A stretch of 64,000 bases of DNA from an uncultured Christensenellaceae bacterium (GTDB taxonomy: Bacteria > Bacillota > Clostridia > Christensenellales > CAG-314): assembly GCA_910586905.1 (NCBI GenBank), contig CAJUIV010000001.1, forward strand, positions 129,987 through 193,986, given 5' to 3'. The notes under the pieces were generated by a model. The model searched no databases. It was not told the DNA's origin and was given only the letters and a program-made list of their open reading frames with translations. Positions 8,472 through 60,797 of this stretch are shown one piece after another. Positions within the stretch are counted from its first letter, which is position 1. Each line of letters starts with the position of its first letter. Position numbers and translations under genes: made by a program.

Positions 8472-8473
8472 AA

Positions 8474-32784: not shown

Positions 32785-32807
32785 TATTATAAACGGAAAT
32801 TCGTATT

Positions 32808-44835: not shown

Positions 44836-45168
44836 TCATTCAATAAGTTCAAGTATAATGCCCTTAGCAACTTTACTTTTACCTTCATACAATTCAAATC
44901 CTGCATTCATTTGCATTAATTCTTGTGGCGCACTTTCTGATAAATACTTAATCTCTGCAATACTTATATGTCCTTTAATGCTTTTATTATGCACCACACA
45001 AGTCCACAAAGGGACTGTTGACACATTATTATCCCAAATGGGAACATTATACTGATTATCGAATACTATTATTGGATTATATATCCAATCGTTATATTTT
45101 TTTTTAGATACTGCTGGTATTTCTTTTCTAGAAATAAACCACTCTATCTGCACCTTTGCTATTTTCAT
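44836..45168 (-). CDS. Putative cognate immunity protein of the Hint-toxin cassette
   Basis: 110 aa with no signal peptide. ATGA overlap with the toxin stop codon. Same AT-rich, CG-poor composition as the toxin tip. Confidence 0.55.
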   Translation of the reverse strand: MKIAKVQIEWFISRKEIPAVSKKKYNDWIYNPIIVFDNQYNVPIWDNNVSTVPLWTCVVHNKSIKGHISIAEIKYLSESAPQELMQMNAGFELYEGKSKVAKGIILELIE

Positions 45169-46151
45169 AAAATTCTCCTAAAACCCAACATAACCTTATT
45201 TAAATATGTATAATGTGCACTATAAGCCTTTCCGATACCGTCTAATGCATAATTATAATATTGCATTCCTTTTAAACTGCTAGTTGCGACTCTAATTTCT
45301 ACAACATTGAAATTTCCGCTTCCCATCATTTTGTTTCCCCATGTAACTGCATCATCAATAGACGTCGCCATAAACTTATCTTGCATTGTACCAAGCTTAT
45401 GCTTAAATCTTCCATGCTTTGTAAGACTTCCATATTCGGCATCTGACATTGCACGATACAATTTGGTTTCACAATTCTTATTATGTACCAACACACCTGT
45501 TTCAACGTAGTAGGTATGGAAATCCTCTACTTCAAAGTTGTAGGTAGTTTGGGGTGTTTCGTAGTGTATAGAGCGAGTGGCTTGTATTTGGGCTAGTTGT
45601 CCGTCGCTGAGCAGTACCGTATCGCCCGCTTTTAAATCTTGTGCAGATACCCATTGTTTGGTTAGCGGTAAGTAGTACTTATGTCCAGGGGTCGAAACTA
45701 TTTCTTTATCGTTGACCTTTACGCCCACCCAGTCCTTGCTTTCGTTACGAAATAAGCGTACCACTGTTTTGTAGGCTTGTTCGCCCGTTTCCTCATTGTA
45801 GGCTAATACTTTATCTCCGACTTGTACGGCTTCTATATTCTTTGTTCCGTCTTCGCAATGTACTAGTGTCCCAGCTATAAAGCAATACCCTGCACATTCC
45901 GCCAACTCTTGCGCAGGATTCGCATTGGCGCGACTGACGTACTTTATTGTGCTTACACATGTAGAGATAAAGACGAATACTCCTGTAATAAAGAGAGCAT
46001 CAGCAAGAGTTTCTTCCAACTCATCCGTATTCCACTTTCCGCTTATTGCAGAACTTATTGCCCAACCCGCTACTGCAAAGCCAATTCCTATAGATACTTC
46101 TATTAACGCAACTTTTGCTGCCGCAGCCAATGCAGAGACTCCGCCCAACAA
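45165..46151 (-). CDS. Orphan polymorphic-toxin C-terminal cassette: hydrophobic TG-containing region - Hint (PT-HINT) domain - unassigned toxin tip of about 95 aa
   Basis: Hint signature CFIAGTLVHCEDGTKNIEAVQVGDKV...FHTYYVETGVLVHNKNC. Two hydrophobic helices upstream (FITGVFVFISTCV). No N-terminal secretion/trafficking domain. TTG start doubtful. Confidence 0.7.
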   Translation of the reverse strand: MLGGVSALAAAAKVALIEVSIGIGFAVAGWAISSAISGKWNTDELEETLADALFITGVFVFISTCVSTIKYVSRANANPAQELAECAGYCFIAGTLVHCEDGTKNIEAVQVGDKVLAYNEETGEQAYKTVVRLFRNESKDWVGVKVNDKEIVSTPGHKYYLPLTKQWVSAQDLKAGDTVLLSDGQLAQIQATRSIHYETPQTTYNFEVEDFHTYYVETGVLVHNKNCETKLYRAMSDAEYGSLTKHGRFKHKLGTMQDKFMATSIDDAVTWGNKMMGSGNFNVVEIRVATSSLKGMQYYNYALDGIGKAYSAHYTYLNKVMLGFRRIL

Positions 46152-46612
46152 CTGCGCTTCCGGTCCTATTGACGCGCCGCCTGTTGCAACCGCTATACCT
46201 ATTGATGCTATAACCAGTATAGTACCTGCTAACGCTTTCTCCCACGCAGGAATACTTCGCCACCAAGAGCCTATTGTTCCTCACATTCTATCCCACCAAG
46301 TTTGCCCGGGATCATATGCAGGATCTTCGTGCCTCTCCGTTACGGGAAATGCCGTATACGGGCTGCTTTCAAGTGCAAGGGGATTATAGTATAAAGTACA
46401 ACTCCTGTCAATACGCCTTGGCAAATCTGCATTCTCTATTACGGTAGATAAGGGTGCGGCGTCTAAAATTGCCGCTTGCCAACAAGAATAAAATCGTATA
46501 TAATTATATTGTATAAAAAAGTCAATTTGTTCGTCGACTAAGCTTTATAGCTGCGCGAGATATGCGCGATTCGTCGGATTTTTCGGTCTGTGATATTTCG
46601 GAGGCTAAAATT

Positions 46613-48421
46613 TTGAATAAAAAAAATTTGCTCGTTGTGCTTTTTATAGCTCTGATAGTCGTTAGTTTGGTGTTCGTCGGCTGCGACGGACATACGCATC
46701 AATTCGATTCTGCTTGGCGTTCCGACGAAACGTATCATTGGAAAAAATGTGCTTGCGGTAAAACCGGCGAAGTACAAAAACACAAACTTGTGCAATGGGT
46801 AATAGATAAAGACGCAACTGCAACAACCGACGGCTTACGTCATTCGACTTGCGAGGTTTGCGGTAAAACTATTTCGGAAACTATCCCTAAGCAAGACGGT
46901 TCCAGCCGTTCGGTTGATTTTTATGCCATAAATGATTTTCACGGTGAGGTAGACAAAATTTCGCAATTTTGCGGATATCTTACTCAGGTATCGAACGGAA
47001 ACACGCTACTGCTCAATTCGGGAGATATGTTCCAAGGCTCGATGGAATCGAATTCCAATTACGGCAAATTGTTATCCGACTGTTTGTCTCTTGCTGGGTT
47101 TGACGAATTGACTTTCGGTAATCACGAATTCGATTGGGGCCTTGACAATCTTAAAAAATTAGTAGACGAAAGCGGAGTGCCGTTTTTGGGCGCCAATATA
47201 TATAATTGGAACGCAGACTCTAAAACGTGGGGCGATTTCGCGTCCGATTTGGCGCGTGAATACATTGTCAAAACGTTGGATAACGGATTGAAAGTCGGAG
47301 TAATAGGTGTTATAGGCGAAAAGCAAATAACTTCGATTTCATCTAACTTAGTACAGACGATTGGATTTAAAGACCCGCTGCCCATAATAAAAACTTTATC
47401 CGATAAACTTAAAAACGAATTGGATTGCGACATTGTGGTGGTAAGCGCGCACGCCAGTCCGCGCGGTTTGGTAGGGGAATCCGACGATTACAGCGCGCCC
47501 CCCAGCAGTTCTGCAGGTTTGTACGAGTACGTAGACGCGGTATTTTGCGCCCATACTCATCAAGAACAGCTGTACGTAGTGGACGGCATACCGTTTATAC
47601 AGGGCGGTTCTAACGGAGATTTCGTTTCGCATATCAGACTATCGGTCGAAAGTAACGGCAATGTTATATGCCGCGAAAAAGAAAACGTCCGATACAGCAA
47701 CAGCTGGCCCAATAAAATAGACGTAAGCGAGTTGGTAGATAACTCAAACGATAAAATAAAAGACGAAGCCAATCAGGTTTTGGGAAACGTTGCGGGCGGT
47801 TATTTAAATTCCGGCACGGCTATTCCGCGGCTGGTAAGCAGAGCTATCGCGGATTACGCCGTTTCTCAAGGATACGAAATTTCTCTCGCTATGGTCAATT
47901 CCGCAAGGAGCAGTCTTTCCGGAGAAATTACTTATTCCAATTTATACAACGCCATACCTTTCGATAACGTTGTATACGTCGCCAACGTATTGGGACGGGA
48001 AATTTTAAACGAGGTGAAATACGGCGTGAGTTTTTGGAGGGTTGACGGACAGGCTATAGAAAGTAACAAGTATTATAAAATCGCCGTTTTGGATTATTTA
48101 TTGTATCATCAAAACGAAAAACGGGAATATAACTATTTCCCGTCGGCATTTGCTTCTTCCAACGCATTTAAACCCGTCGCGTTAACTAAAGAGGGCGTGG
48201 AAGCGTATAATTATCGGTTGATTACGAGGGATTATTTGCTTGCCGGTTCGGGCTATATTTCGATTGCGGATTATGTGTACGCTAACGACTATACGAATCC
48301 GGATTATATTTCGTACGACGTGGATTTGAATTTTCGCGCGTACGGTATGGAAATGTTGACTTTCGATATCTCAAAACAAAGCTGCGTCTTGCAAAGCGGT
48401 AAAAGACGTTTTGCGGCGTAA
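46613..48421 (+). CDS. Lipoprotein 5'-nucleotidase / metallophosphoesterase (UshA/YfkN/CpdB family) with N-terminal Cys/His-rich module
   Basis: Metallophosphatase motifs NDFHG, GDMFQG and GNHEFD, plus a C-terminal 5'-nucleotidase-type domain. Lipobox FVGC. Start set at TTG 46613 behind GGAGG (the track start 46562 is in the same frame). Confidence 0.85.
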   Translation: MNKKNLLVVLFIALIVVSLVFVGCDGHTHQFDSAWRSDETYHWKKCACGKTGEVQKHKLVQWVIDKDATATTDGLRHSTCEVCGKTISETIPKQDGSSRSVDFYAINDFHGEVDKISQFCGYLTQVSNGNTLLLNSGDMFQGSMESNSNYGKLLSDCLSLAGFDELTFGNHEFDWGLDNLKKLVDESGVPFLGANIYNWNADSKTWGDFASDLAREYIVKTLDNGLKVGVIGVIGEKQITSISSNLVQTIGFKDPLPIIKTLSDKLKNELDCDIVVVSAHASPRGLVGESDDYSAPPSSSAGLYEYVDAVFCAHTHQEQLYVVDGIPFIQGGSNGDFVSHIRLSVESNGNVICREKENVRYSNSWPNKIDVSELVDNSNDKIKDEANQVLGNVAGGYLNSGTAIPRLVSRAIADYAVSQGYEISLAMVNSARSSLSGEITYSNLYNAIPFDNVVYVANVLGREILNEVKYGVSFWRVDGQAIESNKYYKIAVLDYLLYHQNEKREYNYFPSAFASSNAFKPVALTKEGVEAYNYRLITRDYLLAGSGYISIADYVYANDYTNPDYISYDVDLNFRAYGMEMLTFDISKQSCVLQSGKRRFAA

Positions 48422-48796
48422 TAAAAGCGATAAAATTTATCGATACGGAACCGACCCGAAAGTTAGAAAAAAATCAGGGATTTCCGTCAAATATAGTTTT
48501 AAACGGGCGTTCGCAAATTTCGGTTTCACGCGTATTTATATAAAACGAATCGCGCGTCAATTTATTGGTCTTAAATCGATTACACGGCAGCGGAAACAGC
48601 CTATTGCGGTGTAATATCGAATTTTGCGCTCTATATTGTTGCAGGCGAGCGGAATTTTTTAAATCCGGTACGATGAGGTAAAAACTTAAAGCGGCAGGAA
48701 CGGTTTTTTTTAAAAAACGCGATTGTATTTTTTGACCGGCAAGCGCCAGTTTGACGATATAATTAAAAAATGATTTTTAATTTTACATAATAGCTA

Positions 48797-48825
48797 TTGC
48801 TTTTTTGCCGAAACGGTGATATAAT
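48797..48825 (+). promoter_or_regulatory. Sigma-A type promoter TTGCTT-17 nt-TGATATAAT
   Basis: Extended -10 (TGnTATAAT) with correct spacing, about 40 nt upstream of the small ORF at 48865. Confidence 0.55.
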
Positions 48826-48864
48826 TCTAATGTTACGTAAAAAGCATTTTTTAGGAGTTGTAAT

Positions 48865-48948
48865 ATGCCGAATATATTTGTAACCAATCTTTATAAGACT
48901 AGTTTACAAAAAAGCGTTTTTACGACCTTTCAAGCGTTGTTTGTCTAG
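48865..48948 (+). CDS. 27-codon leader/small ORF (MPNIFVTNLYKTSLQKSVFTTFQALFV)
   Basis: AGGAG 7 nt upstream of the ATG. The stop codon lies inside the 5' arm of the terminator at 48932-48981. Confidence 0.35.
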   Translation: MPNIFVTNLYKTSLQKSVFTTFQALFV

Positions 48949-48981
48949 TTTGTTCTAGACGAACGGCGCTTTTATTTTTTT
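48932..48981 (+). terminator. Strong intrinsic terminator in the leader of the RDD-ABC operon
   Basis: 17-bp stem AAGCGTTGTTTGTCTAG / CTAGACGAACGGCGCTT (three G-U pairs), 6-nt loop, then TTATTTTTTT. Lies 58 nt before the RDD gene ATG. Confidence 0.75.
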
Positions 48982-49038
48982 GTAACAAACATATCGCATT
49001 GCATTGATACGGAAATTTGGCGATAAAAGGAATAAATC

Positions 49039-49785
49039 ATGATTTACGATTTACAAAAGGCTAGTATATTAAAACGAATTTCCGCGTTCTTATTGGACTT
49101 CATTTTGCTATTAATTCTTACCGCGGGATTTATAGCCTTGTTGACGTTAATCGTACGTTTTGATTTTTATTATAATCAACTTGCGGAATACGACAAGCAG
49201 TATAAAGAAATCGGTATCGAATCCATAACCATAACCAAGGAACAATACGAAGCGCTCGGCGCCGAAGCAAAGGAATATTACGATACGACGATAAACGACG
49301 TGCGCGCTTTAATGTCGCAATGCGTTAGCAGAGCGTTCATGTCTCTTTCGCTCGGATTGTTCTTCTCTCATTTGGTTTTGGAGTTTATAATTCCGTTGAT
49401 TTTAAAAAACGGACAAACGGTCGGCAAAAAGATTTTCAGCGTAGGCGTGATGCAGATAAGCGGCGTAAAACTAAAACCCGTTTCACTGTTTGTCAGAGCT
49501 ATGCTGGGTAAGTATGCCGTCGAAACAATGGTGCCGTTGTCGATAGTATTGATTTTCTTCTTTATCGAAGCGAACGCGTTGTTATTTATATTGTTTATAG
49601 CTTTGTACGTTTTGGAAATAGTGCTGTTTTTCGTAACTAAACGGTACGCGTTTATACACGACGTGCTTGCCAGTTCTGTTACCATAGATATGCAAAGTCA
49701 AATGATTTTCAACACTACGGAAGAAATGATTGCATATAAGGAAGAACTGCACCAAAAAGAAGTAGAACAAGCGGAATATAAATAA
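49039..49785 (+). CDS. RDD-family membrane protein
   Basis: N-terminal KRISAFLLDFILLLIL (RDD signature) and several TM helices. Confidence 0.7.
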   Translation: MIYDLQKASILKRISAFLLDFILLLILTAGFIALLTLIVRFDFYYNQLAEYDKQYKEIGIESITITKEQYEALGAEAKEYYDTTINDVRALMSQCVSRAFMSLSLGLFFSHLVLEFIIPLILKNGQTVGKKIFSVGVMQISGVKLKPVSLFVRAMLGKYAVETMVPLSIVLIFFFIEANALLFILFIALYVLEIVLFFVTKRYAFIHDVLASSVTIDMQSQMIFNTTEEMIAYKEELHQKEVEQAEYK

Positions 49786-49819
49786 TAAACAAAACAAATA
49801 ATTCATTTCGGAGGATGTT

Positions 49820-50308
49820 ATGAACAGAACGTTAATAAAAAATATAACGTTTTACATCGGTGTCGGCGTTGTTTTTCTCGCCGGACTTTTGTATATTTTA
49901 TTGGCGGATATAGTAATAAATACTCAGTCATTGTGGTTGATGATTGCCATCTTGTTATCTTTCGGAAGCGCGATATGCGCTATGGTCGCCGATAATTTCA
50001 AGGAGAAACATAAGGTTATGTATACGCTAAAAGGCGTAGCCATAGGGTTGGCTGTAACTTTTATCGTATTTTTGCTGACTTATATGTTAATTTCCTTTTC
50101 TCCCGCAAAGGAAATGGACGGCAATGCGTCAAGTTTTGTAAATAGCTTTGCGATAAAAAGAGTTGAATTGAAATCAAGCTCGGGAAAATTCGTTAAAGAG
50201 GGCGTCAAAACTATGATGGTATACGTAGTAACGATGGTTATTACAGCTATAGGTTTGGCGGCGCAGATTTGCAATTTGATTTTAACGGTTAAAGCAAAAG
50301 ACGAATAA
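49820..50308 (+). CDS. Small multi-pass membrane protein, unknown function
   Basis: Four hydrophobic helices. Good spacing within the operon. Confidence 0.5.
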   Translation: MNRTLIKNITFYIGVGVVFLAGLLYILLADIVINTQSLWLMIAILLSFGSAICAMVADNFKEKHKVMYTLKGVAIGLAVTFIVFLLTYMLISFSPAKEMDGNASSFVNSFAIKRVELKSSSGKFVKEGVKTMMVYVVTMVITAIGLAAQICNLILTVKAKDE

Positions 50309-50360
50309 GAAATTTTAAATTTACAGTTGTTAAATAATCCACATAAGGAAGGTATGTATT

Positions 50361-51560
50361 ATGAAAGTTGTATTAAAGGATTTAACCAAAATTTTCCCAA
50401 GCAGGAACAAAAACGGACAAGAGGTCGTTGCCGTCAATAACTTTGATTTTGAAATTCCCGACGGCAAACTTATCGGATTGCTCGGACCTTCCGGCTGCGG
50501 AAAAAGTACGACGTTGTATATGATTTGCGGATTGCAAAAGCCGACGAGCGGAAGGATATTTTTCGGAGAAGACGACGTTACCGATTTGACTCCGGAAAAC
50601 CGCGGAGTGGGACTGGTATTTCAAAACTACGCGTTATATCCTCATATGACGGTAAAACAAAATATACTTTTCCCGTTGCAGAATTTTAAAGGCAAAGATA
50701 AATTAACAAAATCGGAAATGCTGGAAAGAGCTTATAAGGTGGCGGAACTCGTACAAATCGACGAACTTATGGACCGTAAACCCAGTGAGCTTTCCGGCGG
50801 ACAGCAACAGCGCGTGGCTATCGCAAGAGCGTTGGTTAAAATGCCGAGAGTATTGCTGCTGGACGAACCTTTGAGTAACCTCGACGCCCGTTTGCGTTTG
50901 CAAACCCGCGAGGAAATCAAACGTATTCAACGCGAAACGAGCATTACGACGGTTTTCGTTACGCACGACCAAGAAGAAGCGATGTCGATTTCCGATTACA
51001 TAGTAGTTATGAAACTTGGCGTTGTGCAGCAAATAGGCGAACCTCAAAACGTTTACGACGACCCCGTCAATTTGTTCGTCGCGAAATTCTTGGGTACGCC
51101 GCCTATCAACGTCTTTGAAGGAAAGATTGAAAAAGGTAAACTGTATATAGGCGAAGACGCGGTATTGAACGTCGGAGACGTAGCCGACCAAGAGGTTTTC
51201 GTGGGTATTCGTCCGGAAGGATTTATATACGATAAAAACGGAGCTCTGCACTGTAAGTTACGCAATTTGGAAGTTATGGGACGCGACGTTAGCGTAGTTT
51301 CGACAAACGAAGCGGCAACGAGTCCTATCGTCCGTTCTATTATAGATGCCGATAATAAAGTAGATATAGCAAGCGAAAGCGTTACGTTCTCGTTAAAGCC
51401 CCACAAAACCTTTATTTTCAATAAAGAAACGGAAGAACGTATTTATTTTGAAATAGCTCAAAAGGCGGAGAAAGTCAATTCGGAAGAAAAACCCGCAAAA
51501 AAACCTGCCGCAAAGAAATCGACTGCGAAAAAAACGACGTCGAAGAAAAGCGCTGAATGA
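50361..51560 (+). CDS. CUT1-type ABC importer ATPase (MsmX/UgpC/MalK-like) with Lys/Ala-rich tail
   Basis: GPSGCGKST, FQNYALYPH, LSGGQQQRVAIAR, LLLDEPLSNLD, VTHD, C-terminal TOBE-like domain. Confidence 0.9.
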   Translation: MKVVLKDLTKIFPSRNKNGQEVVAVNNFDFEIPDGKLIGLLGPSGCGKSTTLYMICGLQKPTSGRIFFGEDDVTDLTPENRGVGLVFQNYALYPHMTVKQNILFPLQNFKGKDKLTKSEMLERAYKVAELVQIDELMDRKPSELSGGQQQRVAIARALVKMPRVLLLDEPLSNLDARLRLQTREEIKRIQRETSITTVFVTHDQEEAMSISDYIVVMKLGVVQQIGEPQNVYDDPVNLFVAKFLGTPPINVFEGKIEKGKLYIGEDAVLNVGDVADQEVFVGIRPEGFIYDKNGALHCKLRNLEVMGRDVSVVSTNEAATSPIVRSIIDADNKVDIASESVTFSLKPHKTFIFNKETEERIYFEIAQKAEKVNSEEKPAKKPAAKKSTAKKTTSKKSAE

Positions 51561-51569
51561 GGTGAGTAA

Positions 51570-52508
51570 ATGGTAGAAAGCAAACATCAATGGAAAGCGT
51601 GGCTGTATCTTTCGCCGGCAATCATATTATTGTTGGTATTTACGGTATATCCTATAATAAACACGCTGATAATGGCTTTTAGCAACAGTTATACTCCAAC
51701 GGCGACGGAATCGAAATCGCCTATAGGTATAAACAACTTTATTCACCTGTTTTCAGATGAAGGCTTGCCGATTTTTTGGAATTGTTTAAAAAATACGATA
51801 TTGCTGTGCGTCATTACCGTTCCGATATCTACGTTTTTGGCTCTTTTGATAGCCGTGGCGCTTAATTCGATTAAACCGTTACAAAAGCTGCTTCAAACGA
51901 TATTTTTCCTGCCTTACGTAACTAATACTATCGCTATCGGCATGGTATTTGCCGTTATGTTTAATATTACGGGCAGAATTGACGATCCGTCGTCTATCGG
52001 AGTAATAAATACCGTTATAAAAGCTTTCGGCGGAGAGCCTGTAAACTGGATAAATGCAAACTCATCGTATTGGAATAACTTTTTTGTAGTGTGTGCGTAT
52101 ATAGTTTGGAATGCATTGCCCTTTAAAATACTTGTCTTACTCGGCGGACTTCAAAGCGTCAATAAGCAATATTACGAAGCGGCAAAGGTGGACGGAACAA
52201 GCCGTTGGCGTACGTTCTGGCGCATTACCGTTCCTATGCTTTCTCCGATGCTTGCTTACGTTATAATTACGGGCTTTATTGGGGGATTTAAAGAGTATAA
52301 CAGCGTCGTGGGTATTTTCGGAGACACTATGGGGCCTGTAGGAACCCAGGAAGGTACGAATATGAACACTATGGTGGGAATGGTTTATCAATTTTTAGGA
52401 AACGGCAACTACGGCGTTGCAAGCGCGGCGTCCCTCATACTGTTTCTCATAATATTCGCGGTTACTATGTTAAATATGTACGTTAGCAAGAAAAAGGTAC
52501 ACTATTAG
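51570..52508 (+). CDS. CUT1 ABC permease (MalF/UgpA-like)
   Basis: Six TM helices and the EAA loop YYEAAKVDGTSRWRTFWRITVP. Confidence 0.85.
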   Translation: MVESKHQWKAWLYLSPAIILLLVFTVYPIINTLIMAFSNSYTPTATESKSPIGINNFIHLFSDEGLPIFWNCLKNTILLCVITVPISTFLALLIAVALNSIKPLQKLLQTIFFLPYVTNTIAIGMVFAVMFNITGRIDDPSSIGVINTVIKAFGGEPVNWINANSSYWNNFFVVCAYIVWNALPFKILVLLGGLQSVNKQYYEAAKVDGTSRWRTFWRITVPMLSPMLAYVIITGFIGGFKEYNSVVGIFGDTMGPVGTQEGTNMNTMVGMVYQFLGNGNYGVASAASLILFLIIFAVTMLNMYVSKKKVHY

Positions 52509-52517
52509 GAGTCGACT

Positions 52518-53522
52518 ATGTCTAAAAAAATACAGGAAAACTTGACAGTAGAAGAAACGGTATCCGCGGAAATAACCGTTGACGTTGCCGAAAGTACCGT
52601 TTCGGATAAAAATGAAAATTTAAGTTCGGTCATCACCGAAAAAGACGTAATGAAAGAACGTGATATCGAAAAAATAGAAAAACGTCAAAGAGCCGCAAAA
52701 ATTACCGCGCAAGTGTTCATTTACATATTTTTAACGGTAATGGCGTTGATAGTCGTATTTCCCTTCTATTGGATGATAATTTCTTCGTTAAAATCTTACG
52801 AAGAATATACGGGACACTTGGTTCCTACGTTTTGGCCGACGGAAGGTATAGATTTTGCGAACTATCTGGAAGCGTTTGAATTGGGCAATTTGGGTACTTT
52901 GTTTTTGAATACGCTGTACGTAGGACTCGTTTCTACGGTATTGTCCCTGATTATCACCGTGCTTGCCGCGTTTGCATTTGCAAGGCTGGAATTTAAAGGT
53001 AAAAACGCATTGTTTGCGGCTTTGCTTGCCACGATGATGATACCCGGCGAATTGTTTACTATAACAAATTATAAAACTATTACCGATTTGGGTTGGAACG
53101 ACTCGTTTATAGTTTTGATTGTTCCTTTCCTTGTAAGCGTATTTTACGTTTATCTTCTCCGCCAAAATTTTATGCAAATTCCAAACGAATTGTATTATGC
53201 GGCGAAAGTTGACGGGACGAGCGATCTTAAATATTTGTGGAAAGTAATGATTCCGCTTGCAATGCCTACGCTTATAACGATAACTATTTTAAAAATGATG
53301 GGTTCGTGGAACTCGTACATCTGGCCGTTGCTTGTTAACACGGATAAAACTTACTATCTCGTAACGGTAGGTATTCGTTCTATGAGCTTTACCGGCGCGG
53401 TTCCGGATTTACCGGTACAAATGGCTGCCGTAACACTCGTATCTTTCCCGCTGTTCCTTGTATTTATATTCTTGCGCAAGTACATAATGAAAGGCGTAAG
53501 CCGCAGCGGTATTAAAGGATAA
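52518..53522 (+). CDS. CUT1 ABC permease (MalG/UgpE-like) with an acidic N-terminal extension of about 60 aa
   Basis: EAA loop LYYAAKVDGTSDLKYLWKVMIP and six TM helices. Confidence 0.85.
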   Translation: MSKKIQENLTVEETVSAEITVDVAESTVSDKNENLSSVITEKDVMKERDIEKIEKRQRAAKITAQVFIYIFLTVMALIVVFPFYWMIISSLKSYEEYTGHLVPTFWPTEGIDFANYLEAFELGNLGTLFLNTLYVGLVSTVLSLIITVLAAFAFARLEFKGKNALFAALLATMMIPGELFTITNYKTITDLGWNDSFIVLIVPFLVSVFYVYLLRQNFMQIPNELYYAAKVDGTSDLKYLWKVMIPLAMPTLITITILKMMGSWNSYIWPLLVNTDKTYYLVTVGIRSMSFTGAVPDLPVQMAAVTLVSFPLFLVFIFLRKYIMKGVSRSGIKG

Positions 53523-53544
53523 ACAAATATATTTGGAGGAAAAA

Positions 53545-55038
53545 ATGAAAAAGACTATTTCAATAGTTATTTTGCTAATCTTATGTTTGGGCGTTATAAT
53601 TGCTTGCTGCGCTTGCGATTTTGAAAAAGACGGCATAGAAGTAACGTTCTACAGTACTATGGGTAAGAATCTCGAAGAAGTAACAAATCGTTATACGAAA
53701 GAGTTTAACAAAATTTATCCCGATATCAAAATCAAACATGTTGTTATATCCGGCGATTATAATGTTTTATACGACAGAATCGGAAAAGAATTGGAAGCTA
53801 ACAGCGGTCCGGCATTAGCCTATTGCTACGCAGACCACGTTGCGACTTACAACGAAACAAAAAAAGTAGTTGCTTTGGATAGTTTTATCAACAGCAAAGA
53901 GGTTGTTCCTGCGGGAAAATTCGGCAATGAAAAAGAATATTCAGTCGGATTCAGTCCCGAAGAAATAGCGGATTTTGTTCCCGGCTTTTATCAAGAAGGT
54001 AAAACGGCTTTCGGCGACGGTTCCACGATGTACACTTTGCCTTTTGCAAAATCTTCCGAAGTTATGTTTTATAACGTCGACGCATTTAACGAATTAAAAC
54101 TTGTTCCGCCTACGCATTGGTGGTGCGACGAAAACTGTCCGAGCGATTGCACAACCAGTATGGAATACGTATGTCAAACGTTTAAGAATACCGAAAAATA
54201 CAAAAACAGTATTCCTTTCGGTTACGACGCGGACGACAACTTCTTTATTACAATGTGCGAGCAGCTTCAAACGTTGCCTGAAAACGAGGGCAAAAACCTT
54301 TATACTAGCGCAACGGGCAAAAAATACCTGTTTAACAACGACGAAGTTAAAAATTGTATTTTAAAACTGAATCAGTGGTATAAAGCCGGTTATTTTATTA
54401 CAAAAGCCACCAACGGTAATGCGTATACTTCCGACTTGTTTAAATTCGAAGACAGCAACATCATCAGTCAAGGCAAACAGTCGTTTATGGGTATAGGTTC
54501 GACAGGCGGCGCTACGTATAATATTCCCGCTACAGATAAGTTTAAAGTCGGTGTCGCCCCTATTCCGCAAATGAACCCGTCTAAACCCAAAGTTATTTCT
54601 CAGGGACCTAACCTTTGTATGTTGTTTAACAAAAACAACATGACTTCCGACCAACAATTAGCGGCTTGGCTTTATATGAAGTTTTTAACAACTAATTTGA
54701 AGCTTCAAGCTTCCTTCTCTATGGCTTCGGGATATACTCCTGTAATTCAATCCGTACAGAACGACCCCATTTACAGAGACGAATATTTAAACAACGATAA
54801 ACTCGGCGCAACCGAAAGAATCTCCGCCGCGGCAGTGAAACAATGTTTGCAGCAAGTAAACAGTTACTACGTAAGTCCCGCTTTTTACGGTTCTTCAACA
54901 GCCAGACAGCAAGCGAAAATTTTGTTCTCCGGTTGTATGGAAATTAAACTTACCGACGAAGCGTTGATTAACGAAATTAACGAAAAATTCAAAACTGCTA
55001 TAGCTGCTTGCGAATTCTTTGCAAAGTCTGACGTCTAG
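53545..55038 (+). CDS. Family-1 extracellular solute-binding lipoprotein
   Basis: Start set at ATG 53545 behind GGAGG. Signal peptide with Cys-rich lipobox IACCAC. Size and position are typical of a CUT1 SBP. Confidence 0.8.
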   Translation: MKKTISIVILLILCLGVIIACCACDFEKDGIEVTFYSTMGKNLEEVTNRYTKEFNKIYPDIKIKHVVISGDYNVLYDRIGKELEANSGPALAYCYADHVATYNETKKVVALDSFINSKEVVPAGKFGNEKEYSVGFSPEEIADFVPGFYQEGKTAFGDGSTMYTLPFAKSSEVMFYNVDAFNELKLVPPTHWWCDENCPSDCTTSMEYVCQTFKNTEKYKNSIPFGYDADDNFFITMCEQLQTLPENEGKNLYTSATGKKYLFNNDEVKNCILKLNQWYKAGYFITKATNGNAYTSDLFKFEDSNIISQGKQSFMGIGSTGGATYNIPATDKFKVGVAPIPQMNPSKPKVISQGPNLCMLFNKNNMTSDQQLAAWLYMKFLTTNLKLQASFSMASGYTPVIQSVQNDPIYRDEYLNNDKLGATERISAAAVKQCLQQVNSYYVSPAFYGSSTARQQAKILFSGCMEIKLTDEALINEINEKFKTAIAACEFFAKSDV

Positions 55039-55052
55039 TAGAGGAAACGACA

Positions 55053-56408
55053 ATGAAAAAAATATTTAGTATTTTATTGGCAGTCGTGCTATGTTTCTCC
55101 GCCGCTGCGGCGTTGGTTTCTTGTAAAGATAAGGAGCCTATCGATTACGTCGCTCAGTGGAAATTGGACTTAAATTCGTCAACCGCTAAAATGGAAGTTA
55201 CCGTTAAGAACTACGTTGACGGCGATACGACGCACTTTTTCGTCCCCGGCGCAATGGCTTCCGAATTCGCTAACGGAGTGCTTAAAGCAAGATATCTTGC
55301 CGTAGACACTCCCGAATCAACGGGAGCGATAGAACCGTACGGTCAGCAGGCTTCCGATTTTACGCATGAAAAATTGGCTTCGGCGGAATCTATAATGCTG
55401 GAATCGGAAGACGAAAATTGGAACACGGACGCTAACGGCAGACACCTTGTTTGGATATGGTATCGTCCGGCTAAAGACGCCGAGTATCGTTTGCTGAATC
55501 TCGAGTTGCTGCAAACGGGCTTAGCAAAAGGTAAAAACGTTGACGGACTTAGATATACCGAGATTTGTACCTTGGCGTATAACCAAGCTATCGACTTTAA
55601 ACTAAAAGTTTATTCCGACGAAGAAGATCCCAAATACTACTACGGAGACGCTATCGAAACGGATATAAAGTATTTGCGTACTCATATTGACGAAGTAAAC
55701 GGCAAGCGCGTTGCGTTTACCGGAACTATCGTTAAAGAAGCTTCCGCAAATCAAGCCGTTTACGTACAAAGTTACGATGCCGAAGACGATATGTATTACG
55801 GTATGTACGTTTACTACGGCTACGCGTTAAAGTTCGGTATTTCGCAATTAAAACTTGGTAATTCGGTGCATTTTGTAGGAGTCGCTAAAGATAACGCTAC
55901 ATACGGTTTCCAAATTTCCGACATAAAGTACGACCCGTATCAGATAGGTACCGACGAGGAAAAAGATTTCTTTAAAGTTATTTCAACAGATAACGAAGTT
56001 ATTTATAAAGAAACTTCCGTAAGCGAATTTAACGGCAAAAAAACAATCGAACTCAGTATCGACGGCGAATTGGTTAAAAAAGAATACAGTTACGCTCAGC
56101 TAGCTTTAAAAACGGCAGTGTCGTTTAAAAATTTAAAAGTTGTAGATATATTTACGACCAGTAAGGAAGATTCTTCTTCCAAGGGCGCTATGACTTTAAC
56201 TTGCAAGGATGCGGCTAACAATACGTTGTATATCCGTACGGTCGTGTTATACGAAGACGATAACGCAAACAACCCCGTAGTTACGGCGGAGAAGTATTTA
56301 AATAAAACTATTGACGTTAAAGGATTCGTTGATTTTTATCAACCCGAAAGCGGCAACGGACAGTACCAAATAAAAGTTTATCAAACTGCGGATATTATAG
56401 TTAAGTAA
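55053..56408 (+). CDS. Lipoprotein with staphylococcal-nuclease (SNase/thermonuclease) domain plus OB-fold-like C-terminal modules
   Basis: Lipobox LVSC. SNase blocks NYVDGDTTHF, ARYLAVDTPE, YGQQASDF, DANGRHLVWIW and NLELLQTGLAKG. Starts 14 nt after the SBP gene. Confidence 0.8.
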   Translation: MKKIFSILLAVVLCFSAAAALVSCKDKEPIDYVAQWKLDLNSSTAKMEVTVKNYVDGDTTHFFVPGAMASEFANGVLKARYLAVDTPESTGAIEPYGQQASDFTHEKLASAESIMLESEDENWNTDANGRHLVWIWYRPAKDAEYRLLNLELLQTGLAKGKNVDGLRYTEICTLAYNQAIDFKLKVYSDEEDPKYYYGDAIETDIKYLRTHIDEVNGKRVAFTGTIVKEASANQAVYVQSYDAEDDMYYGMYVYYGYALKFGISQLKLGNSVHFVGVAKDNATYGFQISDIKYDPYQIGTDEEKDFFKVISTDNEVIYKETSVSEFNGKKTIELSIDGELVKKEYSYAQLALKTAVSFKNLKVVDIFTTSKEDSSSKGAMTLTCKDAANNTLYIRTVVLYEDDNANNPVVTAEKYLNKTIDVKGFVDFYQPESGNGQYQIKVYQTADIIVK

Positions 56409-56493
56409 CAAATTAAAGTATTTTACGCAATCTATTTGCGAAAAATAATGTAACTATGTTTCTAAAACAAAAAAAACATTTAAGGAGAAAAAA

Positions 56494-58158
56494 ATGAAAA
56501 AGAAACTGATTATCAGCTGTATTCTCGCGCTGGTACTGTGCGTGTCTATGTTTACGGCGTGTAACGGCACTAAATTGAGCGTTGAATCGCTTCAAGCTAT
56601 GTTCGATTCGTTAGACCGCAAATATTCCAATGCAAGCGGAACTACGACGGAAAGTTACGATATGCCTGCGCTTGTAACGTATGTAAACGACGGAAGTATC
56701 GAGGAGTGTGATGTTTTGTGGACGGTGGAAGGCTCCGAGCTTGTAACCGTAAGCGAGAAAAACGAAGAAACTCAACGCGTTACCATCAACGTTCCCGCAG
56801 TTAGAGAAAGTGCTATCAACTATACTTTAAAAGGTTCTTTAGTAGATGAAAAAGGCAACGTTTACAAAGACGGCGACGGAAAAGAATTTACGCTGACTTT
56901 AACTCGCGTAGCGCCTAAAACAAACAAAACGGAAGCCGCAAACGCCGAATTTAACAGCAAAATCGTTAAAACCCCTACTGCCGGTACCGCATATAAACTG
57001 GCAACGTGGAAATTACAAGAGATGCTGTATTTCTCCGGAAAAACAGTCAGCGCTACAACGACTTACCGCTATTCTACCGTTAAGAAGTACGCGGACGCCC
57101 CCGACGTTTTCACCGAAACGACTGACGGCGGTTTCTATCTGTACTTTATGAACGGAACGACGAAAACGTATATCGATTTGTTCTCCTTTAACGCTAACAG
57201 CGGCAGCACTGCTTTTGTTACGGATAAAGCGCAGCTTAAAGGCGTTTACAGCGTACACGAAACCGGCGCTTTGGTTACTACCACGAAGCTGAACGAAACG
57301 GATACGACTTCCTCGACTTATTATCTTTCCATAAGAAATAAGTATCCCGGGCAAATAAGCGCTAACGCCGTTAAATATTTGACGGATTCTTACAACAGTT
57401 ACAGAACGACCGAACACGCGATGTATTTGATAAACGGCGAACCTAATATGCCCGCTCAAGAAAATTTGACGGAAGCGCAAATTTTGGAAAAATTGGGTAC
57501 TCTCGGCGAAAACGAAGAAATGTACGGACGTTATTCGCTGACGGGAGAAGTAACTACGCTTGGAACTTACAACAGTAGTTTCTTCACACAAACTATAACC
57601 ATTAAGGTTAACGATACTTTAATCGAGGGTTACAATCTCTACGTCAGCAACGCCGGTAAAGACGTTGCGGTAGGTGATAAAATTAAAATTACCGGTGTCT
57701 TGACGAACTATTCAAAGGACGGCAACAGTAAATTCGAGTTCGTTGCCGGAAGCTCTTTCGAAATCGTTGAGAAAGGACCCGGTTCCGACACGCCTATAGT
57801 TCTTCCTTCTACGGAGCATGCCGGTACGTTAGCGGACCCGTATAGCGTTGCCGATGCCGGTAAAATCGCGGCGGTTTTGGGAAGCAAGCTTACCGAAGAA
57901 GCCGTATACGTAAAGGGTATCATAACGTCTATGAAAGATCCGAGTCAGGGCGAATATAATTTCGATATTGTAGACGCGAACGGAGATACAGTGAAATGTA
58001 TAATCTATTGGACAACGTCTTCTCAAGCTCCTGCGGTTGGAGATACGGTTGTAGTAAAAGGTTGGTTGACGCAATATAACGGTTCTGCCGAAATTACAAA
58101 GAAAGATTTTTCTAACAAACCGGTTATAGTATCTATCAACGGACAATCTATTGCTTAG
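56494..58158 (+). CDS. Lipoprotein with two OB-fold-like modules, paralogous to 58712-59980
   Basis: Lipobox FTAC. Shared N-terminal module (VLWTVEGSELVTVSEK...YTLKGSLVDEKGNVYKDGDGKEF). C-terminal AVYVKGIITS...VGDTVVVKGWLTQYNGSAEI resembles the OB modules of surface nucleases. Confidence 0.6.
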   Translation: MKKKLIISCILALVLCVSMFTACNGTKLSVESLQAMFDSLDRKYSNASGTTTESYDMPALVTYVNDGSIEECDVLWTVEGSELVTVSEKNEETQRVTINVPAVRESAINYTLKGSLVDEKGNVYKDGDGKEFTLTLTRVAPKTNKTEAANAEFNSKIVKTPTAGTAYKLATWKLQEMLYFSGKTVSATTTYRYSTVKKYADAPDVFTETTDGGFYLYFMNGTTKTYIDLFSFNANSGSTAFVTDKAQLKGVYSVHETGALVTTTKLNETDTTSSTYYLSIRNKYPGQISANAVKYLTDSYNSYRTTEHAMYLINGEPNMPAQENLTEAQILEKLGTLGENEEMYGRYSLTGEVTTLGTYNSSFFTQTITIKVNDTLIEGYNLYVSNAGKDVAVGDKIKITGVLTNYSKDGNSKFEFVAGSSFEIVEKGPGSDTPIVLPSTEHAGTLADPYSVADAGKIAAVLGSKLTEEAVYVKGIITSMKDPSQGEYNFDIVDANGDTVKCIIYWTTSSQAPAVGDTVVVKGWLTQYNGSAEITKKDFSNKPVIVSINGQSIA

Positions 58159-58273
58159 TAAGCGTTTTAATACCGTAGAATGTTCTTGGATTGAATGTTA
58201 TTACGACAGCGTCGTTTTAACCACGTTAGTCGTTTCTATAACTACTGTTTAATAAAATTCATAAAAATTACTG

Positions 58274-58303
58274 ACGCCCAAATTTTAGGATTTGGGCGTT
58301 TTT
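58274..58303 (+). terminator. Intrinsic terminator ending the RDD-ABC-nuclease operon
   Basis: ACGCCCAAA / TTTGGGCGT hairpin followed by T5. Confidence 0.75.
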
Positions 58304-58393
58304 AATTTTAAATTGTTTTTTATCGGATAATGTTCGAAAAGCAAAAAATATTGCATAAATAAAAAAATAAACGTCGTTTTTTTCTGCACGGTC

Positions 58394-58422
58394 TTGATAT
58401 CCTGGAAGCAAAGTGATATAAT
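58394..58422 (+). promoter_or_regulatory. Sigma-A type promoter TTGATA-17 nt-TGATATAAT
   Basis: Extended -10. Leaves a leader of about 280 nt before the ATG at 58712. Confidence 0.5.
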
Positions 58423-58711
58423 ATAAACGTAATAGCCGTATCTAAAGCTAAACGGCGTTTAAATCTGCATTTACAGACGCAAATCGTTATTTTTCGAACG
58501 CCGACGGTAATGCCGATTAGTTCGTGATAATTTCTCGGACGTTGCCGTTTATCGTAATCAAAACCGATTTATTGAAATATTATCGTCTTTAAATTCTCTT
58601 GCCTAACCGTAGAGTTGCCGTCGAATTTGACGCCGCGTTCATTCTCATACGTTATATATTAACGAGTTTTCTCGTTTAAAATATAATAAAAACATAAGGA
58701 GTATACGCAAA

Positions 58712-59980
58712 ATGAAAAAAAGACTTTCGCTTGTTGTTTTAGCGGTATTGGTTATTGCTGCCTGCCTAACGGTTTTTGCGGCATGCAATAATAACAACGT
58801 CGATGCTTATATGCTTTTGACGCTTAAAGAAACGCTGGACGATACTAAAATCGGTCCCGTAACCAATGCTGATTTTCAAGTTCCCGCAACGGTATCGGCA
58901 ATCGATATCGACGAGAATGAAATTACGGTAGATATAGTGTGGACGGTAGAAAGCGGCGGTAGCGCGGTTACGGTCGGTGAAAAATCTCAGGACGGCAAAA
59001 CGGTAACAATCAAAGTTACCCGCGGCAGCAACGAAGTCGTATATATGCTTAAAGGTAAGCTTGCAGACGCAAAGGGAAACGCTTATAAAGACGAGAATGG
59101 AGCCGAATTAGTATCGTCGTTTGGATGCAGAGTAGAAGCGTCCGGCAATCAAGGCGGTCAAACTCCTTCCGGAGACAAAGGCACTCAAAACAATCCTTAT
59201 ACCGTTGCGGAGGCACTCGCAATTATAAACGGTTTGACGGGCGAATTTTCCTCTCAAGCGGTATATGTAAAAGGCGTTGTAACGGGTACGGTTAAACTCA
59301 GTACTCAAACTGCTAATACGTATAACTTCGATTTGGCAGACAGCGCAAGCAGTTCCGACAAGCTTATCATATGGTGGGCTTTGAGCGAAAACAAGGCTCC
59401 CGCAGTAGGCAATAACGCCGTTATTTACGGTTATTTGCAAAAGTTCACCAACGCTTCCGGAACTAAAGCGGAAATGAACAGTAATGCCGGGGTAACGCTT
59501 ACGGTTACGTCTTTGGACGATAGCGGTTCGAGCGGCGGAAACCAGGGCGGCAATCAAGGCGGTTCTGACGTTGAAGGCGCAACTGCTACGATATCCGTTA
59601 TCGGTACTTCTACAATGACGGTTAAAACTGCCGCGCAAAACGTGTTCGAACAAAACGGCGTTAAAATTACTAACGATAAAGCCTCGTCTACTAATAATTG
59701 TATTGCTGTATCGAACGAGGCGTATGCTTCTCGTTTCTATGCGGGTTCTACCATCAAGATTGAATACGCAAATATGACGAAAATAGTTATCACTTTAGAC
59801 GACGGAAATTATAACGGTAAAACTTACGTTGCCGGATTTGACGGCATGGATGTTTCCGGAGCGACGATAACGCGCGACGGAGCAACGGTTACCATTGTAT
59901 TCGATTCTCCCGTTTCGGTATTCCAGACTACCGGTTTGGCAAGTCAAGTTCGTATTTACAGTTTTGCAATTTTTTGCTAA
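58712..59980 (+). CDS. Lipoprotein, paralogue of 56494-58158 (shared N-terminal module plus one OB-fold-like module plus distinct C-terminal beta-rich domain)
   Basis: Lipobox FAAC. IVWTVESGGSAVTVGEK...YMLKGKLADAKGNAYKDENGAEL and AVYVKGVVTG...VGNNAVIYGYLQKF align with the neighbour. GGNQGGNQGG linker. Confidence 0.6.
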   Translation: MKKRLSLVVLAVLVIAACLTVFAACNNNNVDAYMLLTLKETLDDTKIGPVTNADFQVPATVSAIDIDENEITVDIVWTVESGGSAVTVGEKSQDGKTVTIKVTRGSNEVVYMLKGKLADAKGNAYKDENGAELVSSFGCRVEASGNQGGQTPSGDKGTQNNPYTVAEALAIINGLTGEFSSQAVYVKGVVTGTVKLSTQTANTYNFDLADSASSSDKLIIWWALSENKAPAVGNNAVIYGYLQKFTNASGTKAEMNSNAGVTLTVTSLDDSGSSGGNQGGNQGGSDVEGATATISVIGTSTMTVKTAAQNVFEQNGVKITNDKASSTNNCIAVSNEAYASRFYAGSTIKIEYANMTKIVITLDDGNYNGKTYVAGFDGMDVSGATITRDGATVTIVFDSPVSVFQTTGLASQVRIYSFAIFC

Positions 59981-60056: not shown

Positions 60057-60797
60057 TTACTTTGTTTTGCTTATTATTTTTATCAGTTTGTTAAAAGCCT
60101 CTCTATCGTCCCGTATTACCGACAGCGGCGTTACGCTTACGTATCCGTTCATAGTGGCGTCGGTATCCAGTTCCAAATTTGTACCGAATTCGTAAACGGA
60201 ATAACCGCGTTGGTCGTAGTGCGTGTCGTCAAGCTTTACGAATTCGTCTGTAAAATACGCTCCGCCTTGGCGCGTTAACAATATTTTTCCGTTTGGTATG
60301 TCGGGAATGTTGACGTTATAAATCGTATTGTAATCGAAGAGCTTATTGCGCGTTATAAAATCGTAAACTAAATCTAAATAGCACGCGTCCGATAAAAATT
60401 TGTCGTGTTCCGTCGAAAAGGCTATTCCGCGAACGTTACGCAAACGCGCTTCGAATATGTTTGCCACAGTTCCGCTGTAAAGTATATCCTCTCCTAAATT
60501 ATAACCGTTATTTATACCCGAAAGTATCAAATCGTATTCTTGTTGTAAACCGATTGTTGCGAATCTAACGCAGTCTACGGGTGTTGAGTCTACGCTGTAA
60601 GCGGTTATATTTTCGCCGAATTCGTACTTGCAAACTTCAATGGGACTGTGTATGCAAATGGCGTGGCTTTTAGCGCTTTGCTGTTTTTTAGGCGCGCATA
60701 CGGTAACGTCGCCCAATTTTTTCGCCCAAACGGCAAGAGTTCTCAAACCTTCCGATTGTATTCCGTCGTCGTTGGTAACGAGTATTCTCATAGCCAT
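60057..60797 (-). CDS. surE: 5'/3'-nucleotidase SurE
   Basis: N-terminal MRILVTNDDGIQSEG, SGINNGYNLG. Confidence 0.9.
   Translation of the reverse strand: MAMRILVTNDDGIQSEGLRTLAVWAKKLGDVTVCAPKKQQSAKSHAICIHSPIEVCKYEFGENITAYSVDSTPVDCVRFATIGLQQEYDLILSGINNGYNLGEDILYSGTVANIFEARLRNVRGIAFSTEHDKFLSDACYLDLVYDFITRNKLFDYNTIYNVNIPDIPNGKILLTRQGGAYFTDEFVKLDDTHYDQRGYSVYEFGTNLELDTDATMNGYVSVTPLSVIRDDREAFNKLIKIISKTK

Follow-up and report, generated by a model that had tools for sequence, protein, structure and literature searches.

Discussion of nuclease-linked ATP-binding cassette (ABC) operons has centred almost exclusively on mycoplasmas, in which they are regarded as virulence and survival factors and in which their cargo was never identified. 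In Mycoplasma agalactiae, the gene for P80 (MAG_5030), modelled as a sugar-type substrate-binding protein (SBP), is co-transcribed with genes for a staphylococcal nuclease-type (SNase) protein (MAG_5040) and for an ATPase and two permeases (MAG_5050/5060/5070), and the authors of that study proposed that the transporter receives nucleotide precursors from the nuclease (PMC3585158). In M. bovis, MBOVPG45_0307-0311 form a putative nucleotide transporter operon whose P81/MslA homologue (0311) binds DNA, and the gene table of that study places deoC and pdp a few genes away (PMC4045577). The same group of mycoplasma systems takes in mhp379, MG_186, Mpn133 and MGA_0676, and the role proposed for the group is to supply the importer with nucleic-acid precursors (PMC3585158, PMC4045577, PMC9740415). 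Here we describe a locus with related gene content at positions 46562-59980 of a 64,000-nucleotide (nt) stretch, referred to as the window, of contig CAJUIV010000001.1 from an uncultured Christensenellaceae bacterium. An initial annotation of this stretch had pointed, correctly, to SNase lipoproteins encoded inside ABC operons of some mycoplasmas (PMC3585158, PMC4045577).

Outside the mycoplasmas, two reports on Izemoplasma and Hujiaoplasma nucleasis describe loci that combine extracellular nucleases with NrnA, nucleotidases and ABC transporters and that are induced by DNA or RNA in culture (PMC10470597, PMC8289736). For the window locus, open reading frames (ORFs) were listed and the encoded proteins were subjected to profile searches (Pfam, NCBIfam). 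The locus encodes a lipoprotein 5'-nucleotidase, an RDD-family membrane protein, an ATPase with two permeases, an SBP, a SNase lipoprotein and two related lipoproteins with OB modules. The initial annotation had proposed a candidate extracellular nucleic-acid harvesting system; gene order, the SNase residues, the relatives of the SBP and the OB modules all support this proposal, and surface harvesting and import of nucleic acid, taken in this general sense, is in our view likely.

Gene order, nuclease and OB-fold lipoproteins

Databases contain more than 4,700 relatives of the 450-amino-acid (aa) nuclease. At least 585 species-representative genomes encode such a relative, and almost all of these genomes are from uncultured gut Clostridia (labelled Christensenellales, Oscillospiraceae, Acutalibacteraceae, Faecousia, Scatosoma and similar). 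We compared 82 SNase-anchored loci with the window proteins by tblastn; individual loci are given L numbers below. In all 53 loci with sufficient upstream DNA, the genes for the RDD protein, the ATPase, the two permeases, the SBP and the SNase follow one another in this order and on the same strand. Further, the SBP gene lies directly upstream of the SNase gene in 70 of 70 loci, and a relative of the OB lipoproteins is found downstream of the SNase gene in 59 of 62. An independent sample of 80 RDD-anchored loci was also examined, in which the ATPase gene follows the RDD gene (68 of 68) and the first permease gene comes next (63 of 63). The neighbourhood of SNase and CUT1 genes, whose conservation the initial annotation had made a point to be checked, is thus strongly conserved.

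Because the RDD gene is invariant, heading the cassette in 53 of 53 loci, it argues that the RDD protein belongs to the transport machine. The ATPase is 70-86% identical across loci. The 162-aa membrane protein encoded between the RDD protein and the ATPase was detected in 12 of 68 loci and is subclade-specific.

Genes for nucleotide-processing enzymes recur around the cassette. Of the 42 loci whose downstream flank extends for 8 kb or more, 27 have the surE gene and two DHH phosphoesterase genes downstream, at a distance of up to 11 kb; in L024, L050 and L064 these genes are still adjacent despite a changed order or strand. The flanks of 11 of the 82 loci carry deoC, deoD, deoB, cdd or pdp; in L003, L065 and L083, five deo genes lie beside the operon on the opposite strand. 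Both counts support the link to nucleotide enzymes that had been drawn from the window.

Some additional observations concern the sampled loci themselves. A gene encoding HD and HD_assoc domains (dGTPase-like) follows the two DHH genes in 6 of 42 loci, for example at 16407-17600 in L003, and is not present in the window. Cassette contigs deposited under implausible names (Corallococcus, Sphaerochaeta, Acidiphilium and Spirochaetales; L001, L064, L073, L161 and L169) are probably binning or labelling errors, and L016, L024 and L082 carry the deposited labels Mollicutes or Bacilli.

In the window nuclease, the SNase domain (approximately residues 45-190) is followed by all-beta, OB-like modules at approximately residues 219-289 and 308-450. 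When the family profile was aligned to residues 8-144 of the Staphylococcus aureus nuclease, D21, R35, D40, T41, E43 and R87 of that enzyme corresponded to D58, R80, D85, T86, E88 and R130 of the window protein, with the DGDT motif kept. In the S. aureus enzyme, D21, D40 and T41 are Ca2+ ligands and R35, E43 and R87 are catalytic. All six positions are invariant in 23 homologues with the exception of D85 (the D40 equivalent), where most relatives have Asn and only the subclade of the window has Asp. An AlphaFold model of the nuclease (predicted local distance difference test score, pLDDT, 89) matched the S. aureus nuclease in Foldseek with a template-modelling score of 0.85-0.90 and a root-mean-square deviation of about 2 Å. 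The catalytic residues, whose loss the initial annotation had named as an outcome against its proposal, and the fold are intact in the window protein, and nuclease activity is predicted. As a separate observation, Asn at the D40 equivalent may indicate an altered metal dependence in most of the nuclease family.

The C-terminal modules gave weak matches to OB families in several members (tRNA_anti_2 in 6 of 23, tRNA_anti-codon in 5 of 23). A Foldseek search with the full nuclease model returned SNase matches only and none for the C-terminal modules, and the OB assignment therefore draws on secondary structure and on the weak but recurrent Pfam matches. The extra modules score as nucleic-acid-type OB folds, as had been suggested; carbohydrate-binding modules, the possibility raised alongside, are unsupported. 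A search of 1.84 billion representative proteins with the double beta-module (encoded at 55635-56405) returned 234 proteins, and in the full-length matches the modules occupy approximately residues 200-450 of proteins of about 440-480 residues. Since this position is the same in all full-length matches, the double module exists only fused to this nuclease, as an invention specific to the family.

With regard to the separate OB lipoproteins, the 554-aa protein contains, in addition to its tRNA_anti_2 match, a second OB-like stretch at residues 360-440 and weak ExeM/NucH and XseA OB matches. Its homologues comprise one near-identical full-length relative and otherwise partial ones, suggesting a fast-evolving slot rather than a family. 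The lipoproteins encoded downstream in other loci vary greatly, but OB folds are found among them again (L003, L089). The 422-aa protein shares its N-terminal and OB modules with the 554-aa protein (BLASTP, 34% identity, E 4e-16 and 2e-15), and two promoter-like sites (58394-58422 and 58659-58687) were found for its gene, in agreement with its description as a paralogue with its own promoter.

Surface and secreted SNases of staphylococci and mycoplasmas have non-nutritional functions (PMC9740415, PMC12115388), and the nuclease and OB lipoproteins might similarly serve mainly competition with neighbours or the clearing of extracellular DNA from biofilm or mucus, sharing no substrate with the transporter. 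This is difficult to reconcile with a gene order that is invariant in 53 of 53 loci, with the tight spacing, with the salvage and catabolic enzymes that recur alongside and with a nuclease C-terminal module confined to this context, and we regard it as extremely improbable.

Substrate-binding lipoprotein, candidate cargo and proposed model

In the Pfam and NCBIfam profile searches, the SBP matched SBP_bac_1 and SBP_bac_8 only and no Bmp-family binding protein, in line with its initial classification as a CUT1-type rather than a BmpA/Med-type protein. A profile built from 41 homologues was run against the PDB and retrieved the 7C0F-7C1B series first (E 6e-22), E. coli UgpB second (2e-14) and sugar binders thereafter. 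A similar ranking was obtained with the AlphaFold2 model of the SBP (pLDDT 93.9): the top 25 Foldseek matches were all entries of the series 7C0F-7C19 (E about 5e-22), and the next family was that of M. tuberculosis UgpB (2e-18), four orders of magnitude weaker. The 7C0F-series entry title reads 'dinucleotide-binding protein of ABC transporter endogenously bound to uridylyl-3'-5'-phospho-guanosine', and we matched the protein of 7C0F-7C1B to Thermus genomes. The SBP therefore stands apart from oligosaccharide binders, a tight clustering with which had been named as the outcome that would undo the proposal; its nearest solved relatives are the dinucleotide-binding protein and then UgpB.

The residues mutated in the Thermus series, Y56, F79, N81, S127, T240, Y246 and Q274, lie opposite Y76, Y99, D101, S174, S323, Y329 and Q357 of the window SBP. 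Four of these seven putative pocket positions are identical and three are conservative; six are invariant or nearly so among the homologues, and either Tyr or His occurs at Y329. An eighth mutated residue, Y224, falls in an unaligned stretch. On these comparisons, the predicted cargo leans to phosphorylated di- or oligonucleotides rather than sugars. In Thermus, the gene order is permease-permease-SBP, and the flanks carry UbiD/FMN-reductase and aldehyde-oxidoreductase genes. This gene context was rejected as independent support for a connection with nucleic acid because there is no nuclease among the neighbours.

The top NCBIfam models of the four transporter parts are all those of Ugp, an organophosphate importer, and UgpB structures form the second-best PDB group. 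Both results, together with the reported binding of glycerophosphocholine by the Thermus relative, would fit an ordinary Ugp-type importer of glycerol-3-phosphate or glycerophosphodiesters, located in a phosphate-scavenging island and not fed by the nuclease or the nucleotidase. However, all four scores are far under the equivalog cut-offs (UgpC 344 of 432 bits, UgpA 87 of 335, UgpE 109 of 297 and UgpB 27 of 411). In an hhalign alignment, W169 and W172 of UgpB, the pair mutated in 6X84 according to its title, are opposite D235, which is variable in the family, and F238. Moreover, neither a GlpQ/UgpQ phosphodiesterase nor Pst or Pho genes were found among the proteins encoded at 44-64 kb; UgpQ is present at the E. 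coli ugp locus. The tryptophan pair that is not kept and the lack of GlpQ/UgpQ nearby indicate that the SBP is not an ordinary UgpB. Taken together with the coupling of SBP and SNase at operon spacing in 70 of 70 loci, this makes a plain Ugp importer very improbable.

The position of the 5'-nucleotidase gene bears on a different possibility, in which the breakdown of nucleic acid by the same surface machinery is completed extracellularly and the importer carries unphosphorylated nucleosides, deoxyribose or ribose. CUT1-type systems usually carry sugars, and the SBP_bac_1/8 matches would be consistent with such a cargo. The nucleotidase gene lies directly upstream of the operon both here and in the nearest relatives, and the deo genes that adjoin 11 of 82 loci belong to nucleoside catabolism. 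Published models for free-living wall-less DNA degraders likewise assume nucleoside uptake (PMC10470597). Nevertheless, a nucleotidase homologue was detected in only 19 of 82 loci, whereas the SBP-SNase pair is universal, and the nearest relatives of the SBP bind phosphodiesters or organophosphates, not sugars. It is established enzymology that the 3'-phosphates produced by SNase-type enzymes are non-classical substrates of UshA-type 5'-nucleotidases. Further, uptake of nucleosides would leave the adjacent NrnA-like pair and SurE without an imported substrate. We therefore consider nucleosides or free sugars, delivered by complete external degradation, an unlikely cargo. To favour phosphorylated di- or oligonucleotides over nucleosides as the specific cargo is a nearly even choice, which we make tentatively.

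These results can be combined into a model of nucleic-acid use. The 554-aa and 422-aa OB lipoproteins, together with the C-terminal modules of the nuclease, would tether extracellular DNA or RNA to the membrane. Staphylococcal nuclease yields 3'-phosphorylated mono- and dinucleotides and short oligonucleotides, and by analogy the SNase domain would cleave the captured nucleic acid to 3'-phosphorylated mono-, di- and short oligonucleotides. The SBP would then pick up small products, most likely dinucleotides or short phosphorylated fragments, and pass them to the Ugp-like two-permease channel energised by the UgpC/MalK-type ATPase. Inside the cell, the two NrnA-type DHH enzymes would split short oligonucleotides and SurE would remove 3' or 5' phosphates to give nucleosides, which, in relatives with an adjacent deo set (pdp, deoD, deoB, deoC, cdd), may subsequently be degraded. 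On an additional, outside route, the 5'-nucleotidase lipoprotein would free phosphate and nucleosides extracellularly.

The capture, cutting and internal-digestion steps are suggested by domain identity and the import step by the SBP comparisons, the latter being the least certain step. Gene content, domains, catalytic residues, lipoboxes, conserved gene order and the closest solved relatives of the SBP were observed directly, whereas we infer what the products are, which species is transported, what the RDD protein does and which signal regulates the operon. As a whole, from capture and cutting to the import of small phosphorylated fragments and their internal digestion, we regard the model as probable. 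In a stricter version, the transporter would be dedicated to the uptake of dinucleotides in intact form or of short 3'-phosphorylated oligonucleotides, with direct hand-over from the nuclease to an SBP of the Thermus dinucleotide-binder type, RDD as an obligatory subunit, NrnA and SurE as committed steps and, in this lineage, a nucleotide-sensing leader attenuator. We view this version as rather doubtful; if true, it would give an oligonucleotide ABC importer a physiological assignment for the first time, and it would identify the substrate that has long been sought for the related transporters of mycoplasmas.

Several points weigh against the model. The SBP and the Thermus dinucleotide-binding protein share only about 18% identity, and ligand contact by the mutated Thermus residues was read from PDB entry titles alone. 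At the Thermus locus, no nuclease, nucleotidase or RDD gene is found nearby, so the physiological ligand of the Thermus protein is itself uncertain. The 5'-nucleotidase lipoprotein argues that at least part of the flux loses its phosphate extracellularly, and this would speak for a nucleoside cargo. CUT1-type systems, moreover, usually carry sugars. The Asn found at the D40 position in most nuclease homologues, although not in the window protein, could lower nuclease activity. SurE and NrnA have housekeeping functions in many bacteria, and surE and the two DHH genes are missing from the flanks in 15 of 42 loci. Finally, co-transcription was deduced from spacing alone, and the family-wide assignments are predictions from sequence and modelled structure.

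The cassette described here, with capture proteins, nuclease, SBP, channel and cytoplasmic finishing enzymes, is fuller than those of mycoplasmas, and uncultured gut Clostridia carry it as a fixed set in at least 585 species-level genomes. Its distribution suggests that nucleic acid from the diet, the host and microbes regularly serves as a nutrient for abundant, poorly known members of the gut flora. The kinship of the SBP to a single solved dinucleotide-binding protein makes the question of cargo a simple binding experiment, and the invariant RDD gene offers a concrete context for studying the largely uncharacterised RDD family.

Locus layout, leader and neighbouring genes

The features of the locus and of its immediate surroundings are collected in Table 1. 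With yidC, jag, mnmE, mnmG and parAB at positions 1-9400, the window is chromosomal and near the replication origin. The species is represented by a metagenome-assembled genome of an uncultured member of the Clostridia (L091).

Table 1. Coordinates of the features of the nuclease-importer locus and its downstream neighbours in the window.
Feature	Position	Strand	Basis
Lipoprotein 5'-nucleotidase, UshA/YfkN-type	46562-48421	+	Metallophos E 1.2e-10; 5_nucleotid_C E 2.1e-9
Operon promoter	48798-48826	+	TTGCTT, 17-nt spacer, TATAAT, TG extended -10; read from sequence
Leader ORF, 27 codons, MPNIFVTNLYKTSLQKSVFTTFQALFV	48865-48948	+	AGGAG Shine-Dalgarno sequence; stop inside 5' arm of terminator
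Leader intrinsic terminator/attenuator	48932-48981	+	17-base-pair (bp) stem, then TTATTTTTTT; about 60 nt before RDD start
RDD-family membrane protein, first gene of operon	49039-49785	+	PF06271, 35 bits
Polytopic membrane protein, 162 aa	49820-50308	+	No Pfam or NCBIfam match above cut-off
ABC ATPase, UgpC/MalK type	50361-51560	+	ABC_tran E 8.6e-38; OB_MalK
Permease 1, UgpA/MalF-like	51570-52508	+	BPD_transp_1; UgpA best NCBIfam match
Permease 2, UgpE/MalG-like	52518-53522	+	BPD_transp_1; UgpE best NCBIfam match
Substrate-binding lipoprotein (SBP)	53533-55038	+	SBP_bac_8 E 1.2e-25; SBP_bac_1
SNase lipoprotein, lipobox LVSC	55053-56408	+	PF00565, 39.5 bits (cut-off 21)
OB-fold lipoprotein, 554 aa	56494-58158	+	tRNA_anti_2 at residues 457-532, 30.4 bits (cut-off 27), E 4.7e-7
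Intrinsic terminator, bidirectional, end of main operon	58273-58300	+	12-bp stem, then T run
Paralogous lipoprotein, 422 aa	58712-59980	+	No Pfam match; BLASTP to 554-aa protein
SurE 5'/3'-nucleotidase	60057-60797	-	PF01975 E 4.3e-49; TIGR00087, 155 bits (cut-off 135)
NrnA-like DHH/DHHA1 phosphoesterase 1	60788-61774	-	NrnA model, 234 bits (below cut-off of 350)
NrnA-like DHH/DHHA1 phosphoesterase 2	61864-62796	-	NrnA model, 246 bits (below cut-off of 350)
Metallo-β-lactamase (MBL)-fold phosphodiesterase, PhnP/Apyc1-like	63476-64000	+	Cut by window end; HSHSDH motif

From the RDD gene through the SBP gene, the intergenic gaps measure 9-52 nt; the SBP and SNase genes are separated by 14 nt, and the SNase and 554-aa genes by 85 nt. 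Lipobox cysteines are present on all five surface proteins, namely the 5'-nucleotidase, the SBP, the SNase and the 554-aa and 422-aa lipoproteins. No LPXTG motif was seen in the locus proteins, and the OB, SNase and 5'-nucleotidase domains are located on separate lipoproteins. The initial annotation proved accurate in its layout: all the ORFs that it named are present at its coordinates in the ORF list, the domains that it claimed were recovered by profile searches of each protein, both spacings were correct, and the terminator it placed near 58274 was located. Its gene content also stood, with the exception of two start codons. The likely start codon is TTG 46613 for the nucleotidase (602 aa) and ATG 53545 for the SBP (497 aa); each start is preceded by a GGAGG Shine-Dalgarno sequence and agrees with the gene call in a contig from the same species.

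The best NCBIfam match of the nucleotidase is the 5'-nucleotidase half of PRK09419, a YfkN-type model, and a promoter-like site of its own was found at 46476-46504. Between the lipobox and the phosphoesterase domain, positions 46680-46880 encode a Cys/His-rich module (HTHQFD..W..D..HWKKCACG....H....W....C.VCG), and the L089 orthologue is approximately 300 residues longer. Another side observation concerns the C-terminus of the ATPase (51450-51560), which forms a Lys/Ala-rich tail, EKPAKKPAAKKSTAKKTTSKKSAE, resembling nucleic-acid-binding tails of the histone H1 type.

The promoter and leader predicted upstream of the RDD gene were borne out, and the leader additionally contains a 27-codon ORF and a terminator with a 17-bp stem (48932-48971). 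The leader is about 200 nt long, and the terminator hairpin dominates both the minimum-free-energy and the centroid folds. Among 127 distinct upstream regions, equivalent ORF-terminator pairs were found only in the window species and in three further lineages (L001, L025/L095 and L089/L090), at approximately 5120-5360 in L001, 3795-4035 in L025 and 5185-5420 in L089, corresponding to 48798-49038 in the window. Across the four lineages the leader ORFs have 26-31 codons, and TT(G/A)TAACA is conserved after the U tract; the operon promoter is conserved in L001 and L025, and L089 retains part of it. The next-closest loci, L093 and L110, have neither the leader ORF nor the terminator, and the feature is thus lineage-specific.

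Since the operon has its own promoter followed by an intrinsic terminator that is overlapped by a short leader ORF, its expression is probably controlled by leader-peptide attenuation, in which the terminator would be kept from forming by a ribosome at the leader ORF's end. Coupling of this putative attenuator to nucleotide supply is an attractive, though speculative, idea. Rfam scans gave zero family matches, both for the whole window at gathering thresholds and for 48300-49200 at E values up to 5, and a known riboswitch in the leader was rejected on this basis. A candidate palindromic operator, CGTCAAATTGACG, noted in the upstream regions of L096 and L105, was dropped from consideration, being present in 3 of 130 upstream regions.

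Beyond the locus, the surE gene, the two NrnA-like DHH genes and the PhnP-like MBL gene noted initially were all found, the last as a partial gene. SurE and both DHH proteins lack a signal peptide, and their genes are convergent with the main locus; DHH protein 1 carries a DGDAIGS motif. In B. subtilis, NrnA is a short-oligonucleotide exonuclease and a 3'-phosphoadenosine 5'-phosphate phosphatase. In the contig from the same species, the MBL gene carries Anti-Pycsar_Apyc1 and Lactamase_B_2 domains; its membership in the system is uncertain.

Other parts of the window yielded some further observations. A 328-aa PT-HINT ORF (45165-46151, minus strand, E 3e-27), followed by a small ORF without family assignment (44836-45168, minus strand), lies directly upstream of the nucleotidase gene and beside tRNA-Pro (43875-43951), and the pair resembles a polymorphic-toxin cassette or a remnant of one. 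Downstream of parAB, positions 10001-12000 are AT-rich (GC fraction 0.33 compared to about 0.42) and contain a 242-aa ORF (10411-11139, minus strand). A second ABC system at 27156-34811 adjoins a GH2 glycosidase and is unrelated to the nuclease-importer locus; it consists of a fused permease (613 aa), a double ATPase (524 aa) and two proteins without assignment.

Comparison with known systems

B. subtilis YhcR carries the same kinds of domains (OB, SNase and 5'-nucleotidase) on the cell surface. It is, however, a single sortase-anchored polypeptide that is not known to be linked to a transporter, whereas here the domains are split over four lipoproteins in and beside an ABC operon. This YhcR-like inventory on separate lipoproteins, pointed out in the initial annotation, is supported by the Pfam domains, the lipoboxes and the lack of a visible LPXTG motif in the locus proteins.

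Among transporters, E. coli UgpBAEC provides the best NCBIfam models for four parts and has the same subunit composition; in contrast, the window importer scores far below the cut-offs, does not keep Trp169/Trp172, has no UgpQ/GlpQ and is coupled to a nuclease. The Thermus dinucleotide-binding protein is the best match of the SBP in both sequence and fold and shares the order permease-permease-SBP, but the window SBP is about 100 residues longer, lipid-anchored and about 18% identical. The BmpA/PnrA importers NupABC and RnsBACD have the same presumed purpose, the salvage of nucleic-acid building blocks, with a binding protein of a different family. The Izemoplasma-type loci differ in their extracellular ribonuclease and phosphate ABC system, and the accessible portions of those reports do not mention a SNase-SBP pairing (PMC10470597, PMC8289736).

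Likened by published gene arrangement, the closest known system is the mycoplasma MslA/P80-SNase-ABC operon. Both have a SNase surface lipoprotein beside an SBP-like lipoprotein and a sugar-type importer with one ATPase and two permeases, and in both cases deo genes may be close by: deoC and pdp in M. bovis, and deo genes beside some of the clostridial loci. Gene order differs, being SBP-SNase-ATPase-permeases in mycoplasmas and RDD-ATPase-permeases-SBP-SNase-OB lipoprotein here. The clostridial nuclease has two additional C-terminal OB-like modules, and separate OB lipoproteins, the universal RDD protein and the surE/NrnA/NrnA block are further features of the clostridial cassette. The hosts are also different, being uncultured gut Clostridia with the standard genetic code. 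In mycoplasmas the DNA binder is the SBP-like P80/P81 protein, whereas here OB-fold lipoproteins fill a conserved slot downstream of the nuclease.

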